A DNA stretch of 33,498 bases from a virus (Duplodnaviria; Heunggongvirae; Uroviricota; Caudoviricetes): IMG/VR virus record IMGVR_UViG_2711768056_000010. One strand, 5' to 3'. Below, piece after piece: positions 1,695 through 13,248 of the stretch (positions within the stretch are counted from its first letter, which is position 1; each line of letters begins with the position of its first letter). A model generated the notes under the pieces. It was not told where the DNA came from. It ran no database searches and saw nothing but the letters and a program-made list of their open reading frames with translations. A program made the position numbers and the translations under genes.

Positions 1695-1911
1695 AAAAAT
1701 TCATATGCCCCTGACCACCTGGCAATGGATGTGGAGGAGCAGTAGCAATCAGTGCGGGTGTCACAATAAACCGGACCACTGTTTCATGAGTAACAAAAGT
1801 GCTCCCGCAGTTAATATTTTGGCACTGGCAGTAACGCTCTTTGGTGCTTTCAGTTACTTGAAAACTGCTCCTTGTGTGTGCCGCATGACCACACTTTGGA
1901 CAATTCATCAT
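1693..1911 (-). CDS. ogr: Ogr/Delta-type zinc-finger late-gene transcription activator
   Basis: MNCPKCGHAAHTRSS...ERYCQCQNINCGSTF matches the C-x2-C...C-x4-C signature of P2 Ogr; ORF-track start trimmed to the tandem ATGs at 1911/1908; lies downstream of D as in P2. Confidence 0.85.
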   Translation of the reverse strand: MMNCPKCGHAAHTRSSFQVTESTKERYCQCQNINCGSTFVTHETVVRFIVTPALIATAPPHPLPGGQGHMNF

Positions 1912-1979
1912 ATCCAGATCCCTACCTTTGCTATCAGAATCATTGTAATGATACACAAAATATCAATATTGAGAACACT

Positions 1980-3080
1980 TTATTCCATTTCAAGATCATC
2001 AATCTTCACTTCGAGTTCAATACTGGTTGTAAAACCGTTATCCGGGCTGACGGTATGTGTCAGAGTCGTAATGGTCCATTCCGCATCATCTATCGGCTGT
2101 TTAAAACCACTGACCTTCACAGGCATTTCCGTGTAGAGATCTGCCCGCCCTTCTGCCAGTTGTAGCGAAAATGACGCAACGCCGCGTTGCAGGCGTTCCC
2201 ACTGCATTTTCGCCGCTCGTTCGGCGTTGCTCCGGTTGGCATAAGTGCGATTAAGTACCAGCACGTTTTCATCCGTACCCACCAGGTAATCGCCCTGCTT
2301 CGCTTCTGGCTCTTTCTTCTGCTTCTTAGTTCTGCGCTTACGCTTCACCGTGGTGCTTTCTTTCTTCGCAGGTTCGCGGGTATGCAACCAGCTGGCAATT
2401 ACGCCCGTGTAGGCTCCGCGATCTGCCAGGGTAAATCGGTGACTGTCGCCGTCCTTGCGTGTGATAGTGATCACTGGCAGAGGTTTACCAGTGGCGCTTT
2501 TGCCCTGCCCCTGCCGGATGAATAACAGATTGCCATTTTTCACCGACGCGATGGCACCGTACTGTCGCGCCAGCCGCATCAGAAAATTGCCGTCACTCTC
2601 ATTAGTCTGGTCTATATGCTCCACGGGCTTATCCGACAGGTCTTTACCCAGTGCCATCTTCAGCTTGTGCCGCGCGGCTATTTCCTTCACCACTTCCCCG
2701 ACGGTGGTCTTATGCCACGATTTTTCACGGCGGGTATTCAGCGTTTCCCGAAAATCAGCACTTCGCGCCCGGATAGTCAGGCGGTCCGGTGCGCCAGTGT
2801 GTTCAATCTCGTCCACTGTGAATGCCCCTTTCGGGAAAAGCGGCTGCCCCTTCCAGCCCAGCGCCAGCGTAATAACCGCACCACGGCGCGGCAGCACGAT
2901 TTTTCCGTCAGCGTCATCCAGCTCCAGATCAAGCTGGTCCGCTTCAAAGCCCCGGTTATCCGTCAGCGTCAAACTCATCAGGCGGTTATCCAGCACAGTG
3001 GTGATATCCCTGCCCTCAATACTGATGCTGAATGCGGGAGTTTTGTTGCCTTTGTTAAGCAGTTCAGAGCTGAAATTCAC
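1980..3080 (-). CDS. D: Tail protein D (late control D)
   Basis: 366 aa, position and sequence consistent with P2 gpD; follows U. Confidence 0.85.
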   Translation of the reverse strand: MNFSSELLNKGNKTPAFSISIEGRDITTVLDNRLMSLTLTDNRGFEADQLDLELDDADGKIVLPRRGAVITLALGWKGQPLFPKGAFTVDEIEHTGAPDRLTIRARSADFRETLNTRREKSWHKTTVGEVVKEIAARHKLKMALGKDLSDKPVEHIDQTNESDGNFLMRLARQYGAIASVKNGNLLFIRQGQGKSATGKPLPVITITRKDGDSHRFTLADRGAYTGVIASWLHTREPAKKESTTVKRKRRTKKQKKEPEAKQGDYLVGTDENVLVLNRTYANRSNAERAAKMQWERLQRGVASFSLQLAEGRADLYTEMPVKVSGFKQPIDDAEWTITTLTHTVSPDNGFTTSIELEVKIDDLEME

Positions 3081-3562: not shown

Positions 3563-6500
3563 GCGTCGTATCCCCCCTGATCGCTGTAGTTACTCCTGGC
3601 TTTTGCCTTCAGCCTGCGTTCACGTTCATCAAGCTGGCGTGCCACCTCCCGCGCAATATCCTGCGCACTTTGTCCTGGCTGCGTCTGAATGATGATCTGC
3701 GTCGGTGCCTCAATCCGTTGAACGAGCGGCACAGTGGCTGCGCGACTCAAAATTGCTTCTCCACCTTTCGCGGGAAGTGCCAAAGGGTGCAACGGTGGAA
3801 GCTCTGCTGGCGCGGCAGCAACGCCCATCATTCCGGCAACAACGGCAGCCAGTGCAGCTGTATTTCTCCGGCTGGTCACATTTGCCGGGCCGTTAACAAT
3901 TTCCGGCCCGTTTTCACCGACGATGCCAAACTGCCCGCGCGGGATATACCCGCCGCTGTCATACATCCCCGCAAAGCCATATCCCCATGATGGAAAACCA
4001 CCCGATGGCATCATCACTTTACCGTCTGCATTCACCGTCGCAGGTTGCTGACGCGTCACGCTTTCCGGCAGTTTTGCCTTTGCGGCCTCTTTACTGACAA
4101 TGCCGAGCTTCTCCAGCAACCAGGAAACGCCAGATTTCAGGGAGTCCAGCGGATGCATGACCATATTCAGCCCTTCCGCCAGTGCCTCCCCGAATCGCCG
4201 CCCCATTGCCGCTGCGCTCTGCAGTTCGGCAGAGGTCGACTTAACGGGCGTCAGCAGATCAGTAAACCAGCCCCACAGCGCCTGCACTTTGTCGCCAATC
4301 CACTGGAACACGGGCTTAAGCGGTTCGAACGCTGCACTGATGGGACCTGCCGCCGCTTTGAATCCTTCCACCACGCCACCGAGAAATGCGGTGATGGGTT
4401 GCCAGTATTTCCAGACAACCAGCGCCACGCCCGCCAGTGCAGTAACCACAAGACCTATCGGACTGAGCAGAGCACCTAACAGACCAGATATGGCATACAG
4501 GGCAACGCGCAGCATCGCCAGCGGGCCGGATGCGAGCACACGCAGCACCGCGCCTGCGGCAGCCAGCCCACCGCGTAGTGCTGCCAGTGGATTCATAAAC
4601 ATCACAGCAACAGCACGTAAACCGGATAATCCAGACCGCAAAAGTGCAACCGGCGCACCTGCTACAGTTTTCAGGACATTCCCCATCAGTGATACCGTGC
4701 GACGCAAAGACGACAACGGAGCAGTAAGTAAACCCGCTGCGTTGCCCGATGAAGCAAGCCCGCGTCGCAGCAGTGCCAGTGGTGCGCCAGCCAGCCAGGA
4801 CAACGCGCTGCTGGTTCGAGTTACTGCTGCCGTAACGGAAGGTAACGTTTTGATACCCAGCACAGAGAATCCCAGACGGATCACTGCCAGCGGCCCCAGC
4901 ACTGCAGCCAGCGCCACCGCTAAGGTGCCGAGGCCTACGGTAACCGCAGCCACAACAGCCACTACTTTCATCAGTGTGCCTGTCAGTTCCGGGTTAGCTT
5001 CCACCCAGCGGCGCAACGCCCCCGTGACGCTTTTCACCGTGTACAGAATATCCATCAGCGGCTGGCGCAGCGTTTCGCCCAGGCTGCTGAAGGTGTTCTG
5101 CGCTCCGGTTTTGACCAGCAACCACTGAGCAGAAAGTGAGTCTTTGTTGATGTCGGATTCTTTCTGCATCGAACCGAGCGCATCATTGCCCGCTGTCAGT
5201 TTTAGCTGGCGCTGTAGTTCCGGCAGGTTGTTTGCCAGTTTCGCCGCGTCATCGCCAAACTCTTTACCAAACAACATGGTCATGGCAGACAGACGCTTGT
5301 CCTGCGGCAGTGCGTTCACCTTCTCCAGTACACGCTGGATGGTTCCCATCGCATCCTTCGTCATCTGCTTTTCAATCACTTCAGGATTGAGTTTCAGCAG
5401 ATTCATCCCTTCAAAGAAACTCTTGCTTTGCATGGTGGCAATGGACAATTCACGCACCATCGCGTTTGCTGCACTGGCTGCAACCTCCGGCGCAGCGCCC
5501 AGTGTCAGAAAGGTGGAACCCAGTGCCGCCGCTTTACGATAATCCAGACGGTCAGCCACACCGCCCAGACGTTGCATCACATCAATGATGTCCGCCCCTT
5601 TCGACATGGCGTTATCATCCAGATAGTTCAGCGCATCGCCGAGCTGTTCAATATTGCGGGTAGGTATTTTGTAGAGCTGGGCGATTTTCCCCAGACTTTC
5701 TGACAGTTCATCCGCTGGCAGCTCAAAGGCTGTTGCCGCCTTTGCTGCCGTACTGGCGAAGGCCAGCAGGTCACGTTTCTGGTCTTCCCAGCTGTCGTCA
5801 GGGTTTGCCACGTTCATGCGCGCACCACCTTCAACCAGTGCAGCGAAGTCCACCGCACCGTTTTCCATCGGCAACTGTTCGCTGGCAGCCTTGATGGCAT
5901 CCTGCATTTCGTAAAAACGCGCAGTGCGGTTGCCATTATCGTCACGCAGACCATTGACCTGCTTTGCCACACCTTTCATGGCATCTTCCATGCTGGTATA
6001 GCTTTTTACCGCCGCCATCACTGGCGCGCCCATTGCCAGCCCTGCAGCCGTGGTGGTGGCTCCGGCTCCTGCGATACGATCGCGCACTTCAAGCCGTCTT
6101 GAGTATTGTTCTCTGGCAGCGTTCATCCGTGCCTGTTGTTCACCCAGACGTTTAAGTGCTTTTTGCTGGCCCTCCAGTGCCTGCCTTGTTTCTTCAGCAT
6201 TTTTCTTAAGTTCTCGCTGGGCACTACTGAGTTGCCTGGTATCAATCCCTGATTCTTTAAGTGCCTGACGTTGTCTCTGGACCGCCCCCAACAAGCCGTT
6301 ATAGGTCTGCTGAAGTTCCTGTACTCGTGTTTTGGCCTGACTGAATAACTTTGCCTGCGCGGCGGTTGGCCTGTTAGTGGCAGCAAATTGTGTGGCGAGT
6401 TTTGCCGCCTCTTCGCGGGCTGCGTTCAGGTTGTTGGCTGTTATGGCTAGTTGCGAGCGCGTCTTGCGAAACTCATCAATTCTGCCAGCCTGCTTATTCA

Positions 6501-8893: not shown

Positions 8894-8911
8894 TGTGTCG
8901 TTATTCACACA
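8894..8911 (-). promoter_or_regulatory. Candidate Ogr-dependent late promoter element (TGT-N12-ACA) upstream of FI
   Basis: TGTGTCGTTATTCACACA dyad about 80 bp upstream of the FI start, matching the P2 late-promoter activator-site pattern. Confidence 0.5.
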
Positions 8912-8959
8912 AAATAACGGTATTTGTCTGCTTGCAGGGATAATCAACATAATGCTGAT

Positions 8960-9526
8960 TCAGGGGGATTCATTGATCTTATTTGCCGGAAATTTTCTAT
9001 AAATGGTAGAAACGCCTACATCAAAAATCAGTGCAATACGCTGTCTTGATTCTCCGGCCTCGAGTAAACGCCCAATCTGTGCCCACTGTTCGGTGGTCAA
9101 CTTAGGACGGCGTCCACCTACTCTGCCTTTGGCACGAGCTGCAGCCAGCCCTGCCCTGGTACGTTCAACTATCAGTTCGCGTTCCATTTCAGCCAGGGCA
9201 CCCATGACATGAAAAAAGAAACGGCCCATTGGGGTACTGGTATCAATACTGTCAGTCAGGCTTCTGAAATTCACACCACGCTGGCGCAACTCTTCTATCA
9301 GCGTAACAAGATGCCGCATACTGCGCCCCAACCTGTCCAGCTTCCAGACAACCAGCGTGTCTCCTGCCGATAGTGTCCTGAGTAGTTTTTTCAGCCCCGG
9401 TCTGTCGGACTTAATGCCACTGATTTTGTCCTCAAAAATCCGCTCACATCCCGCGCAGTTCAGTGCATTACGTTGCAAATCGGTGTTCTGGTCATTTGTT
9501 GACACGCGTACATAGCCAATAAGCAT
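8960..9526 (-). CDS. Serine DNA invertase (Hin/Gin/Cin/Pin family)
   Basis: MLIGYVRVSTNDQ...GDTLVVWKLDRLGRS...C-terminal HTH; ORF-track TTG start trimmed to ATG at 9526 with AGGGGA Shine-Dalgarno sequence. Confidence 0.9.
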   Translation of the reverse strand: MLIGYVRVSTNDQNTDLQRNALNCAGCERIFEDKISGIKSDRPGLKKLLRTLSAGDTLVVWKLDRLGRSMRHLVTLIEELRQRGVNFRSLTDSIDTSTPMGRFFFHVMGALAEMERELIVERTRAGLAAARAKGRVGGRRPKLTTEQWAQIGRLLEAGESRQRIALIFDVGVSTIYRKFPANKINESP

Positions 9527-9581
9527 GATCAATCCCCTGAATAAAAACCGGGGATGATGCCAGTTAGCCGTTATCTCTGCA

Positions 9582-9607
9582 TTTTCATAAACGTTCCTAT
9601 TCTGGTT
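9582..9607. other. Candidate Hin-family recombination site (one consensus half-site) between invertase and tail-fibre genes
   Basis: TTTTCATAAACG-TT-CCTATTCTGGTT; left half fits the TTnTCnnAAACC half-site pattern recalled for hix/gix/cix/pix; right half is diverged. Confidence 0.35.
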
Positions 9608-10091
9608 TTTCTGGCCACACTGGCTTTGACGTATCGACGCGCATCAGTAAGACCCGGTATTTTTTCCATTCTGACAAAGCGGCGGTTTCGTCTTCTGTCG
9701 CTATTCCCGCATCAACCGCATCCTGCCGCCATGCAATTTCAGAATCAGCTTTCAGCCTCAGGCTTGCCTTCATAGCCTCTGAATCAGCGATTAACTCGCT
9801 CTGCGATTTTCGATACTCGACCAGTTTTCCACCGATTAATCGCTGTTTATCTGTATCAATCGTTTCAGCATTAATCTCCACCACATAGAAGCCAGCAGGG
9901 TCAGGAAGGCTGGAAACATCGCGTGTAAACGCTGAAATACGGCCGTCATCGTCGTAGAGGATTTTTAGTGTATCTTCAGCAAAGTTATTCTGTTGCTCAT
10001 ACCAGTCGCCGTCTGCGTTTCTGGAATAGCTGACAGTGCCATATTTCAGATTATCTGGTGTGTAACGTTCAAATTTTTTACTGAGTGACAT
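9597..10091 (-). CDS. G: Tail fibre assembly protein
   Basis: 164 aa; P2 G/Tfa-like; start overlaps the end of H. Confidence 0.85.
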   Translation of the reverse strand: MSLSKKFERYTPDNLKYGTVSYSRNADGDWYEQQNNFAEDTLKILYDDDGRISAFTRDVSSLPDPAGFYVVEINAETIDTDKQRLIGGKLVEYRKSQSELIADSEAMKASLRLKADSEIAWRQDAVDAGIATEDETAALSEWKKYRVLLMRVDTSKPVWPEKPE

Positions 10092-11745
10092 TGACCCATG
10101 CTCCGTTAATGTAAGCCTGAAGAGTTGCGACTTTTACTTTGTTAAGTACCCACGCACCACCACCTGGCGTCGGGGTGATATAAATACCCACAACCATTTC
10201 ACTAGTTGTGAAATTCATCCAGGCATCTGCAGTCGTAACAGTTACTTCTCGGGGCGCAGAAAGGCGCAATGCTGAAACCGACTCGCCAGCCAGAGCCATT
10301 GTCCCTGCTTTATCTGGGATGATAATTGCCTTACCGTTAATCCCTGTAATGTTCGCCTGGTTGTTCATGGAATAAATACCAACACGGACAATATTATTGC
10401 TGTCCGTAACCTCTAATCCGTATCTGCATGAAAGTGCATCAGATAACGACTGTTTCATGGTGGCGTCTGTAATGACGTAGTTTCCTTTCGGTTGCAATTT
10501 ATCAATACCGAAAGCGGCTTTAACCCCATCAACAGTTGTTTGACCTGTCCCCCCTTGTGTGACAGGTAGAGCGATAGCGGCTCCGGTGTCGTTATTCCAC
10601 ATTCCCCAACTGGTGTTCGACACCAGGAGAAATTTTTTCAAATCAGGAGAGAAAATCTTCGTGGATACAGGGTCGGGTTTAATGGTCTGCAATCCAAGGT
10701 ATGTGAGAAGACCAGCTACATCCTTTCCACTCAAATTGGTAAGCGTATTGTCCAGCGGTTGTTTACCTGCCAGCGCATTAAGCATTGTCGTGGCAAAGTT
10801 CGGATCATTCCCCAGTGCCGCCGCCAGTTCGTTCAGTGTATCCAGTGCAGCAGGTGCAGAACCCACCATTCCTGCAATCGCCGATTTCACAAAAGCCGTA
10901 GTGGCAATCTGTGTATTGTTGACCGACTGCGCCGCCGTGGGGGCTGTTGGCGTTCCGGTGAGTGCCGGACTCGACAACGGTGCTTTAAGTGCCAGCGCAT
11001 TGTTAATGGTGGTACTGAAATTCGGATCATTGTTAATGGCTGCGGCTATTTCTTTCAGCGTGTCCAGCGTGGCTGGCGCACCATTAATAAGGGCCGTCAG
11101 TGCCGCCTGTACAAACGCAGTGGTCGCAACCTGCGTGGTATTATTCCCCGCCGCTGGCGTTGGCGCTTTGGGGGTTCCGGTAAATGTCGGGCTGGCTTTT
11201 GGCGCGTACTGTGAATGCGGGTCCGGTGCGGCAAGATGTTTTGCCATCTGATCATCCGCGTACACCTTCAGCTCCAGTGCCTTGTCATCCACATACTTGC
11301 GGGTTGCCAGCACTACAGCAGGGTCGATTTTCAGGGTGATATTGTCCGTGCTGCTGGTAATCAGCACCATGCGCACGGTCTGAGTGCGCCCGCTACCTTC
11401 AGCCAGTTGCGGCTTATAGCTTTCCGGGCAGTTGCCCACGGCAATCAATGCCCCGGACTCATCAAACAAGCCCACTTCACGTATCCACCAACCGCCCTCG
11501 TTTTCAGGGATCACCTGTTCGGCAATAATCTGGCTGCTGTTCTGCGGGTCGATATAAAGCATATTCAGCGCAGCCCGGCGTTTCTCATTTACCAGTGCCG
11601 TCTGCTTTGCGTCCGGCGTTGGCAATACTCCACCGCCATCGCCCACCGCCATATGGGTAATTTTTAGCGGCACACCGAGCGCGGCGGCGCTGGCAAGTTT
11701 CGCCGCGCCAATATCCGTCAGCAGGGTATAAAATTTTGTGCTCAT
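10078..11745 (-). CDS. H: Tail fibre protein H
   Basis: 555 aa; N-terminus MSTKF...MAVGDGGG...SYKPQLAEGSGR matches P2 H; internal repeats PALTGTPTAP...NNTQIATTAFV...LNELAAALGNDPNFATTM. Confidence 0.9.
   Translation of the reverse strand: MSTKFYTLLTDIGAAKLASAAALGVPLKITHMAVGDGGGVLPTPDAKQTALVNEKRRAALNMLYIDPQNSSQIIAEQVIPENEGGWWIREVGLFDESGALIAVGNCPESYKPQLAEGSGRTQTVRMVLITSSTDNITLKIDPAVVLATRKYVDDKALELKVYADDQMAKHLAAPDPHSQYAPKASPTFTGTPKAPTPAAGNNTTQVATTAFVQAALTALINGAPATLDTLKEIAAAINNDPNFSTTINNALALKAPLSSPALTGTPTAPTAAQSVNNTQIATTAFVKSAIAGMVGSAPAALDTLNELAAALGNDPNFATTMLNALAGKQPLDNTLTNLSGKDVAGLLTYLGLQTIKPDPVSTKIFSPDLKKFLLVSNTSWGMWNNDTGAAIALPVTQGGTGQTTVDGVKAAFGIDKLQPKGNYVITDATMKQSLSDALSCRYGLEVTDSNNIVRVGIYSMNNQANITGINGKAIIIPDKAGTMALAGESVSALRLSAPREVTVTTADAWMNFTTSEMVVGIYITPTPGGGAWVLNKVKVATLQAYINGAWVNVTQ
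10684..10709. other. Candidate Hin-family recombination site (one consensus half-site) inside H
   Basis: GGTCTGCAATCC-AA-GGTATGTGAGAA; right half fits the half-site pattern; lies at the codons for the conserved LTYLGLQTI junction between constant and variable H regions. Confidence 0.3.
10756..11190 (-). repeat. Two tandem copies of an approximately 72-codon repeat within H
   Basis: Protein segments about aa 186-255 and 259-329 are near-duplicates (PTxTGTPxAPT...NNTxxATTAFV...LDTLxExAAAxxNDPNF.TT). Confidence 0.7.
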
Positions 11746-12347
11746 GGATTCACTCTCATTGTGTCAATAACATGGACCGCCCCGCCTTCATGCGCGGTGC
11801 CACCGGAAATAATCGTTTCGTTGATATACGGATAGATCGTGATTTCTTCGCCAAGATAGCTGGCGGCTCCCACCCAATGCGGGCCGCTGGTCTGCAGATT
11901 GATGGACATGCCGATCATGTGGCGGCTACATGGTTTGGCATCGCTTATCAGTCGCTCAAGTTCCAGATAGGTATCTTCAGTGATGCCCTGGTCCTGCACG
12001 CCGATATCCAGGCGAAACGTGCCCGGTGTTTCTCCGGTCTGCCACCACTCAATAATGCGGATCAGGAATCCGAACGGTTCCACCACCCGCCGCACGGCAC
12101 TGGTGGTTCCTTTATGCTGATGAATATAAAAAGCATCCTTCACTACCTGGCGTTTGACGCTTTCTGTCCAGCCCTCGTCCCAGCGATCCACAGAGAACGC
12201 CCAGGCGAGATAAGGCAGGAAGCTGACCGGACAGGTAGCCGGATTCCACAAGTCACGCAGCGGCACCTGCAAATCAGAAATCCCGCTACAGGTTTGCGCC
12301 AGTCGGCGCTCCAGTGAAGTTGAACCCGGTGGCAGCAGACTATTCAT
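11742..12347 (-). CDS. I: Baseplate assembly protein I
   Basis: 201 aa, P2 gene order; GGAGG Shine-Dalgarno sequence; start overlaps J stop. Confidence 0.85.
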   Translation of the reverse strand: MNSLLPPGSTSLERRLAQTCSGISDLQVPLRDLWNPATCPVSFLPYLAWAFSVDRWDEGWTESVKRQVVKDAFYIHQHKGTTSAVRRVVEPFGFLIRIIEWWQTGETPGTFRLDIGVQDQGITEDTYLELERLISDAKPCSRHMIGMSINLQTSGPHWVGAASYLGEEITIYPYINETIISGGTAHEGGAVHVIDTMRVNP

Positions 12348-13248
12348 CCGTTCCTCCGTTGGTTACGCTCCACTGCGTACATGATGCCGCCTGTGTTTTG
12401 TTCAGGACCACATCCGCCAGCGGAGAAGCCAGTTCCACACGTTGAACACCCTCAACATGCAGAGCAGCAAAGATGGCGCTACGGCGAATATCCCGACCAA
12501 GCCTCGTCTGGCTGGCAATGTACTTCTGCAGACTGGCTTTTGCCGCTGCCATTACCGGCTCTGCTTCCGGTCCCGGATAGAGAAAAATGGTGGCTTCCAC
12601 GCGATACGGGATGATTTCTGCGCTGCGAACCGTAAGACGGTCAGCCACCGGGCGGACGTTCTCACTGTTCAGAGCTTTTTCCACCACGTCCAGCAGGTCT
12701 TTTTCTGCAGTTCCATCGCCTTCGCGGCTAAGGACAGTCAGCACCACCTCTGCAGGTGCCGGGCTGGTTGCACTGGCATCCGCCACCCGACCGTCGGCGC
12801 TTCGGGCATGAAATTCATAAGCTGCAGTTGGCCCCGCAACAGAAAGCCCTTCAAAGGCTGCAGGCACACGCAGGCGCAACGCTTCATCGCTTTCCATCAC
12901 AGCTGCAACGGGCGGCACAGCATCATTATCAGCAGGCGTCACCGTCAGGCGTGTCACGTTGTAGTTGGCAGCGAGCTGGTCAAGATCGCCGCCCATCGCG
13001 TAAGCCACCATCACCGCCTGCGCGGCTTCGTTAATGCGCTGGCGCAGAAGCAACTCACGGTAAGCGTTCTCCTGCAACAATTTAGTGGCAGGTTCAGATT
13101 CCAGTTCCAGCGTGCGGATCACTGCTTCCTGCTCATCTTTCGGATGAAGCGCCACAAATTCTGCCTTGCGTTCGGCAAGCAGCGTCTCAAAGTCCGGCAC
13201 ATCCACAATCTGCGGTGCAGGCAACTGCGAAAGGTCAATCACTGCCAT
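12340..13248 (-). CDS. J: Baseplate assembly protein J
   Basis: P2 gpJ-like; ORF-track GTG start trimmed to ATG at 13248 (MAVIDLSQ) with AGGAG Shine-Dalgarno sequence. Confidence 0.85.
   Translation of the reverse strand: MAVIDLSQLPAPQIVDVPDFETLLAERKAEFVALHPKDEQEAVIRTLELESEPATKLLQENAYRELLLRQRINEAAQAVMVAYAMGGDLDQLAANYNVTRLTVTPADNDAVPPVAAVMESDEALRLRVPAAFEGLSVAGPTAAYEFHARSADGRVADASATSPAPAEVVLTVLSREGDGTAEKDLLDVVEKALNSENVRPVADRLTVRSAEIIPYRVEATIFLYPGPEAEPVMAAAKASLQKYIASQTRLGRDIRRSAIFAALHVEGVQRVELASPLADVVLNKTQAASCTQWSVTNGGTDE

Follow-up and report, generated by a model that had tools for sequence, protein, structure and literature searches.

Genes and features of the tail-fibre locus

The window, the whole stretch of 33,498 nucleotides that was analysed, is a Peduoviridae (P2-like) prophage. 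Of its first 25 kb, 87% align with Escherichia phage 500465-1 at 97% identity and 81% with phage Cartapus at 96% identity. The tail-fibre gene H lies on the minus strand (Table 1), between an upstream gene encoding a homologue of P2 gpI (Tail_P2_I) and downstream genes encoding a tail-fibre assembly protein (Caudo_TAP) and a DNA invertase of the Gin/Cin/Hin family. Translation of the invertase probably starts at the ATG at 9526, which gives 188 amino acids, and the gene is also called as 188 amino acids in L088 and L089. Both of these loci show the same gene order as the window, with GpV, GPW and Baseplate_J.

The N-terminal domain of H, a tail-collar or baseplate-attachment domain, matches the whole 150-position profile of PF12571 (positions 1-150; E = 5.9e-65). 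There are 57 PHROG families that match the H frame, among them phrog_327 (1.8e-166), and the majority carry a tail-fibre or tail-protein annotation. The name "tail fibre H" is justified by the PF12571 match together with the P2 gpI, assembly protein and invertase neighbours, and H belongs to the P2 gpH-type fibres, since it shows both PF12571 and a P2-type baseplate neighbourhood (V, W, J, I, H, G). The identical 555-residue protein is encoded on four contigs from public assemblies.

Table 1. Position and strand of the tail-fibre features in the window, with the evidence for each
Feature	Position	Strand	Evidence or remark
Tail-fibre gene H, P2 gpH type	10078..11745	-	ORF, 555 aa; PF12571; PHROG tail-fibre families
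H N-terminal tail-collar/baseplate-attachment domain, aa 1-150	11296..11745	-	PF12571 Phage_tail_fib
Repeat copy 1, aa 181-254, 74 codons, homologue of P1 b1	10984..11205	-	Unit HMM 1-74, 138.5 bits
Repeat copy 2, aa 255-328, 74 codons, homologue of P1 b2	10762..10983	-	Unit HMM 1-74, 138.8 bits
Conserved linker after the repeats, aa 329-352, QPLDNTLTNLSGKDVAGLLTYLGLQ	10690..10761	-	Ends at constant/variable junction
26-bp invertase crossover-type (cix-like) site	10684..10709	.	GGTCTGCAATCC AA GGTATGTGAGAA; only outer half-site at consensus
Variable C-terminal, presumed receptor-binding part of H, aa 353-555 + stop	10078..10689	-	Diverges from close relatives
Tail-fibre assembly protein, 164 aa	9597..10091	-	PF02413 E = 5.5e-24; phrog_136 2.1e-38
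Gin/Cin/Hin-family DNA invertase	8960..9532	-	PF00239 7.1e-53; PF02796 1.4e-15
Antisense shadow ORF, 230 aa, not a gene	10559..11251	+	No PHROG match; mirrors H repeat

The H protein of 500465-1 is identical to that of the window up to the motif GLLTYLGL, and that of Cartapus is nearly so, and beyond this motif both are unrelated to it. The variable part of H shows only weak PHROG tail-fibre matches. The site of L001, TTCTCCCAAACC AA GGTATGTGAGAA, was used for comparison with the crossover-type site at this junction. The close relatives have two fibre tips and two assembly genes, which together form a complete invertible segment bounded by 26-bp crossover sites. The window shows a single tip-plus-assembly cassette at 9596-10695, and on both sides of the cassette its likeness to the relatives stops exactly at the 2-bp core, so that the outer half-sites alone are at consensus. 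This cassette is also found, 96-97% identical in DNA and joined at the same cores, beside invertase genes in two E. coli prophages of unrelated background, and the arrangement of the window recurs on contigs with the identical H gene. Among 5,426 complete E. coli genomes, no place covers at least 80% of window positions 8900-10800, the stretch that spans the cassette arrangement. The arrangement looks like the result of an exchange or a deletion through the invertase crossover sites.

Two adjacent 74-codon units in the shaft region of H

The shaft region of H contains two units of 74 codons (222 nt) that are directly adjacent, gap-free and in register, and the whole span extends from 10762 to 11205. 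Each unit is formed by two parts: part A, the N-terminal 40 or so residues, with the motif SPxLTGxPxAPTxxxxxNxTQ[IV]ATTAFV, and part B, the C-terminal 34 or so residues, with the motif APxxLDTLxELAxALxNDPNFxTT..NAL..K. The two copies, aligned without gaps, are identical at 45/74 amino acids (61%) and 138/222 nucleotides (62%). With filters off, the unit HMM detects these two copies in H and no others.

The DNA repeat finders are silent at this site. Neither Tandem Repeats Finder (TRF), which returns 0 rows at a minimum score of 30, nor a seed-based repeat finder, the two run over 9500-12500 and 10000-12000, detects the H repeat, because the copies are too diverged. At 62% identity they lie below the likeness of at least about 70% that a DNA-level tandem repeat in the TRF sense has. 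An ungapped offset scan and Smith-Waterman comparison against shuffled sequences were used in place of these finders. The scan of H at offsets from 30 to 600 nt shows a sole outlier at 222 nt, with 63% identity, and all other offsets reach 39% at most. The Smith-Waterman score of the two copies is 232 in protein, against 37 +/- 7 for shuffled sequences (maximum 71; z = 27.8), and 51 in DNA, against 17 +/- 2 (maximum 28; z = 15.6).

A first-pass annotation of this DNA had proposed two consecutive repeats of about 72 codons in the H shaft, at 10756-11190. The repeats are there, at amino acids 181-254 and 255-328, but the unit has 74 codons, and the span, although it marks the same feature, has ends that shift by 6-15 nt. 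That proposal would have fallen if a self-comparison of the DNA had given no significant repeat, and both the peak at offset 222 and the DNA Smith-Waterman score show a significant one. The unit pair is a true tandem duplication inside a conserved shaft region.

The b1/b2 pair of phage P1 and other related fibres

A tblastn search of phage records with the 148-residue pair matches GenBank M81956.1, which contains the R gene of phage P1 and the constant segment of gene S, over exactly nt 1783-2226. The annotation of this record shows a "repeated element b1" at 1783..2004 and a "repeated element b2" at 2005..2226, both inside the constant segment, Sc, of gene S. We take the b1/b2 record to belong to Sandmeier, Iida and Arber (1992, J Bacteriol 174:3936-3944).

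Copy 1 of H shows 80% amino acid identity to b1 and 62% to b2, and copy 2 shows 81% to b2 and 66% to b1. At the DNA level, b1 is 73% identical to copy 1 and 62% to copy 2, and b2 is 61% identical to copy 1 and 70% to copy 2. Within P1, b1 and b2 share 68% of amino acids and 63% of nucleotides, values that in H are 61% and 62%, respectively. P1 gene S and H have in common two adjacent in-frame 222-nt units with identical boundaries, the position of the pair in the constant part of an invertase-switched fibre gene, just upstream of the constant/variable junction, and a QPLD.TLT...YLGL motif after the second unit. They differ in two respects: the H pair is fused to a P2-type PF12571 domain, whereas P1 has the N-terminus of S with a0/a1 elements, and the linker to the junction has 54 amino acids in P1 (where Sc ends at 2388) and 24 in H. 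The identity of 80-81% over the full 74 residues excludes that the P1 and H units are non-homologous. With its 222-nt adjacency, its unit-for-unit homology and its place upstream of the crossover junction, the H pair falls within the P1 b1/b2 type. Since M81956.1 annotates b1 and b2, the H repeat is an ordinary case of the already known P1 b1/b2 shaft duplication. As a whole, H is a mosaic in which a P2-type attachment domain is followed by a P1-type b1/b2 shaft pair, a short QPLD...YLGL linker and an exchangeable tip.

Two Peduoviridae phages show the same constant part. In 500465-1 (NC_049342.1) amino acids 1-352 of H, including both repeats, are identical in protein, and in Cartapus (NC_070909.1) they are near-identical; the DNA of the matched part of H shows 96-99% identity to these two phages. 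Both differ from the window in their C-terminal ends and in having two fibre ends and two assembly genes within a complete invertible segment. A more distant likeness is found in the LtfA fibre of the T5-like phages DT57C and DT571/2, which contains tandem 19-residue repeats whose copy number changed in a selected mutant (PMC4728585). LtfA shares with H a tandem shaft motif and gives a precedent for copy-number change in fibre shafts, but its sequence is unrelated, its unit is much shorter and it is a siphovirus lateral fibre.

Copy number and spread of the module

The number of units was counted in two sets of H-like genes. The near-identical set contains the best 120 database clusters matching H amino acids 1-353: 106 proteins show two units, 13 show three, and one, a protein of 616 amino acids from Enterobacter roggenkampii, shows four. 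The units of the constant part keep an exact 74-residue register from amino acid 181 in all of the 20 rows inspected. One group with three units has its third, diverged unit downstream, in the variable part, at amino acids 357-430. The cross-species set contains 66 complete genes of other species with the same N-terminal domain: 45 show no unit, 17 show one (including those with about 1.5) and four show two. Several of the 17 contain "one and a half" units, in which a unit largely devoid of its C-terminal part precedes a full one. The expectation that copy number may vary among relatives of H was thus correct: comparison with homologous H genes gives two, three or four copies among the near-identical proteins and none, one, about 1.5 or two across species.

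A search of 1.84 billion cluster representatives (50% identity) with a profile of the two window copies gave 46,198 matching proteins at E <= 0.001, of which 14,329 reached E <= 1e-10 and 2,006 reached E <= 1e-30. The largest number of matched stretches in one protein in this search is 23. Among the best 150 matches there are up to 11 full units per protein, the commonest start-to-start spacing is exactly 74, and part A alone (the first 34-47 residues) occurs up to 22 times per protein. In the phage records, tblastn finds the pair or part B in P1, P7, D6 and lambda stf (orf-314), and also in Pseudomonas, Mycobacterium, Gordonia and cyanobacterial phages, there as part of a fibre or a minor tail protein. 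The H unit pair matches 33 PHROG families.

No model for the 74-residue unit was found in Pfam (2025 copy), and no NCBIfam model covers it in a scan of H. The obvious curated candidate is presumably PF03406, the phage tail fibre repeat, a short repeated shaft motif. Neither PF03406 nor any other tail-fibre repeat family matches the units alone in Pfam at E <= 10, where only chance-level matches appear, and PF03406 is absent from the Pfam scan of the whole of H at E <= 0.01. A full-text literature search for the peptide motif of the module found no paper.

Probable role of the module in the fibre shaft

The modules lie between the N-terminal domain, which would attach the fibre to the baseplate, and the junction where an interchangeable and presumably receptor-binding end joins. 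The most likely role of the module is that of a length-setting segment of a trimeric fibre shaft. Each module would add a fixed stretch of rigid shaft to the assembled trimer, and copy number would then set the length and reach of the fibre, not its receptor specificity. A generic shaft segment is suggested because the modules belong to a constant part with swapped tips, occur in phages of very different hosts and are tolerated in anything from zero to several copies; the 46,198 clusters, with up to 23 stretches in one protein, also fit a generic building block.

The structures that match the module cover part A or part B only, never the whole unit. For part A the matches are the modelled N-terminal region of the phiTE long tail fibre (9cuy) and gp24 of cyanophage A4 (9k09), the latter aligned twice, at residues 151-223. 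According to the A4 paper, gp24 consists of a long trimeric stem with a terminal domain at either end, one head-binding and the other cell-wall-binding; both this paper and that on phiTE describe the fibre stem in general terms only. For part B the matches are a collar fibre (9d93) and FibU of 80alpha, in which the region matching part B is not modelled (80alpha paper). These partial matches, together with the stem of gp24, lend indirect support to a trimeric shaft segment. A literature search by the PDB code 9D93 gave nothing relevant. AlphaFold2 predictions of H amino acids 149-352 from the single sequence and of the 148-residue pair from a 17-row alignment have pLDDT values of 42 and 38, respectively, too low for either model to be relied on, as is expected when an obligate trimer is predicted as a monomer.

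The same modules might instead be binding domains, for lipopolysaccharide or for a virion protein such as the assembly chaperone, and their copy number would then alter avidity. The high conservation of the sequence, with 45 invariant positions between the copies, speaks for such a function, as does the fact that very different phages have part B in their collar fibres and minor tail proteins. However, the modules sit in the constant part and are common to fibres with unrelated receptor-binding ends, they occur across phages of hosts with differing cell surfaces (Escherichia, Klebsiella, Pseudomonas, Mycobacterium, Gordonia and cyanobacteria), and many genes with the N-terminal domain of H have zero copies. 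On this balance binding domains appear improbable.

Unequal exchange between the units

Apart from the group whose third unit is in the variable part, the three-copy proteins examined show a chimeric middle unit, with an N-terminus of copy-2 type and a C-terminus of copy-1 type, and the switch points differ among them. At the DNA level the switch is single and clean, and is located at unit nt 147-153 in L082, 87-90 in L083 and 15-19 in L084. Within L082, one part of the middle unit matches the gene's own copy 3 at 149/150 positions and the other part matches its own copy 1 at 70/72, and in L084 the corresponding values are 17/17 and 203/205. The crossovers of L082 and L084 sit in microhomologies of 8 nt and 6 nt, respectively, that are common to both units, and microhomology at the observed switches ranges from 2 to 8 nt. 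The exchanges in L082 and L084 appear to be recent and to have taken place within the gene, because the match to the gene's own copies is near-perfect and the switches lie at microhomologies.

Such hybrid middle units are evidently the signature of an unequal (out-of-register) crossover between copy 2 and copy 1, in which an exchange between two 1-2 genes would give 1-[2/1]-2. Read in this way, the exchange has happened at least three separate times, twice recently. The one-copy genes show the copy-1 type in their N part and the copy-2 type in their C part, and the nucleotides are biased in the same direction, with noise. This pattern is consistent with the reciprocal deletion products, copy-1/copy-2 hybrids, but it could instead reflect constraints from the flanking domains. 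Taken at the level of sequence, the units demonstrate that copy number changes between lineages via out-of-register recombination between them.

At least three independent expansions among close relatives, together with an invertase-based switching system that adjoins H, could also suggest that copy number is switched within a population at high frequency, in a programmed, phase-variable manner. A DNA identity between units of only about 62%, with 2-8 nt of microhomology at the switches, predicts rare events instead, two copies are kept in 106 of the best 120 near-identical proteins, and nothing places an invertase site inside the repeats. Programmed switching is rejected as very improbable on the low unit identity, the short microhomology and this constancy.

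Beyond this, it may be proposed that the A+B unit is among the commonest uncurated building blocks of tailed-phage fibres, with a copy number adaptively tuned to the thickness of the host surface layer by recurrent microhomology-mediated unequal exchange between units of about 62% identity. This extended proposal is speculative and, taken as a whole, rather doubtful.

Age of the duplication and reading frame

The two copies of H are identical at 68, 82 and 36% of codon positions 1, 2 and 3, respectively. Synonymous sites have thus reached saturation, whereas the protein has been conserved, so the duplication is ancient and held by selection on the protein in the H frame. An ancient origin is also indicated because gene S of P1 has the same b1/b2 pair; since this pair is shared unit for unit, the duplication predates the split between the shaft of P1 S and that of H.

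The equal length and exact adjacency of the H units, and the recent gain of extra copies in relatives, are what a recent, unstable and transient DNA-level tandem duplication, or an assembly artefact, would also produce. Such an origin has a negligible probability and is rejected, since copies that are 62% identical in DNA and 36% at third positions, and on which TRF is blank, are not fresh, and the pair is orthologous to that of P1. In addition, the same two diverged copy types are found in 500465-1, Cartapus, other genera and P1, and four contigs from public assemblies bear the identical gene.

The repeated motifs that the first-pass annotation had noticed in an antisense ORF do show a periodicity of 74 residues, with 58% identity at that offset in ORF 10559..11251, but they are merely a shadow of the H frame. 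A second plus-strand ORF, of 151 residues, is located at 10759..11214. That the repeat belongs to a real plus-strand gene overlapping H is scarcely credible and is rejected, for although both frames are long (230 and 151 residues) and periodic, neither has a PHROG match, as opposed to the 57 families of the H frame, the wobble positions of the 230-residue ORF coincide with those of H by coordinate arithmetic, in the frame where shadow ORFs are expected, and conservation is highest at codon position 2 of H. Both plus-strand ORFs are shadows of H.

Taken together, the pair is very probably formed by two tandem shaft modules of 74 residues in a P2-type fibre, an ancient pair of the P1 b1/b2 type with a conserved protein sequence, whose copy number shifts by recombination and whose role would be to set length.

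Significance

The H repeat alone has little weight: it is real and ordinary, it was annotated in P1 decades ago, and its protein is already present in deposited phage genomes in an identical (500465-1) or near-identical (Cartapus) form. The additions that it allows are only mildly useful, namely nucleotide-level evidence of repeated unequal exchange and a common 74-residue module without a curated model. Since the copies of Pfam and NCBIfam scanned contain no model for it, annotation pipelines miss this widespread unit. The three-copy genes, with their hybrid middle units and 2-8 nt of microhomology, provide a clean natural example of change in shaft length, and the unit boundaries could serve as natural splice points for engineering the fibres of P2-like phages or tailocins.

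Tail-fibre switching segment of the window

The tail-fibre switching segment of the window appears to be frozen, judging from its gene content and its crossover-type sites. In the relatives L001 and L002, a pair of 26-bp cix/gix-like sites encloses two tips together with two assembly genes, whereas the window shows only one of each, and its two sites agree with the consensus only in their outer half-sites. On both sides of the cassette, the 2-bp core marks the exact point at which the window ceases to resemble these relatives. The variable C-terminal domain of the tail-fibre protein H, which forms the tip, shows no match in Pfam.

Location of the switching segment features and adjacent invertase gene in the window
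Feature	Window coordinates	Description
Half-consensus crossover-type site	9582-9607	TTTTCATAAACG TT CCTATTCTGGTT
Half-consensus crossover-type site	10684-10709	GGTCTGCAATCC AA GGTATGTGAGAA
Cassette between the sites	9596-10695	single tip and single assembly gene
Variable C-terminal domain, H aa 353-555	10078-10689	PHROG tail-fibre families match only weakly, with E = 1.2e-05 at best
Invertase gene	8960..9526/9532	intact

Distribution of the 74-aa unit

Seven genes sharing the N-terminal domain of H (L004, L008, L011, L015, L018, L019 and L024) contain a "one and a half copy" form of the 74-aa shaft unit at aa 181-300. Their first unit retains part A and the last ~8 residues (LNNALALK), and ~28 residues of part B are missing. 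This partial first unit shows that the 74-aa unit is made up of two separable sub-modules. The 543-aa relatives of H, P0007-P0013, contain a third, diverged unit at aa 357-430, with 53-54% identity to the two copies of the window. Since this unit lies in the variable part, past the crossover junction, the module is not confined to the constant segment.

Invertase gene and possible cassette exchange

Contigs encoding an identical H (L088 and L089) show the same order of H, assembly and invertase genes as the window. Among the close relatives with three copies, L083 and L084 have the sheath gene directly after the fibre assembly gene (region 4737-5474) and lack an invertase gene altogether, and L082 has one assembly gene followed by ~380 nt without a called gene and then an invertase gene. 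Thus, gain, loss or truncation of the invertase module has occurred repeatedly across this phage group.

The tip-plus-assembly cassette (window 9589-10709) shows 96-97% DNA identity to cassettes of two unrelated E. coli prophages: L085 (4001-5112) and L086 (4001-5121). One of these prophages is e14/Mu-like, annotated stfP/ymfQ, and the other has a DUF2612 baseplate gene. Each of these cassettes is adjoined by its own invertase gene, and the outer half-sites to which they are joined differ, with the junctions at the same core dinucleotides. Recombination at "quasi-sites" has been described for Cin. The shared cassette, with the same cores and differing outer half-sites, suggests that the crossover sites may serve as a route for cassette movement or flank exchange.
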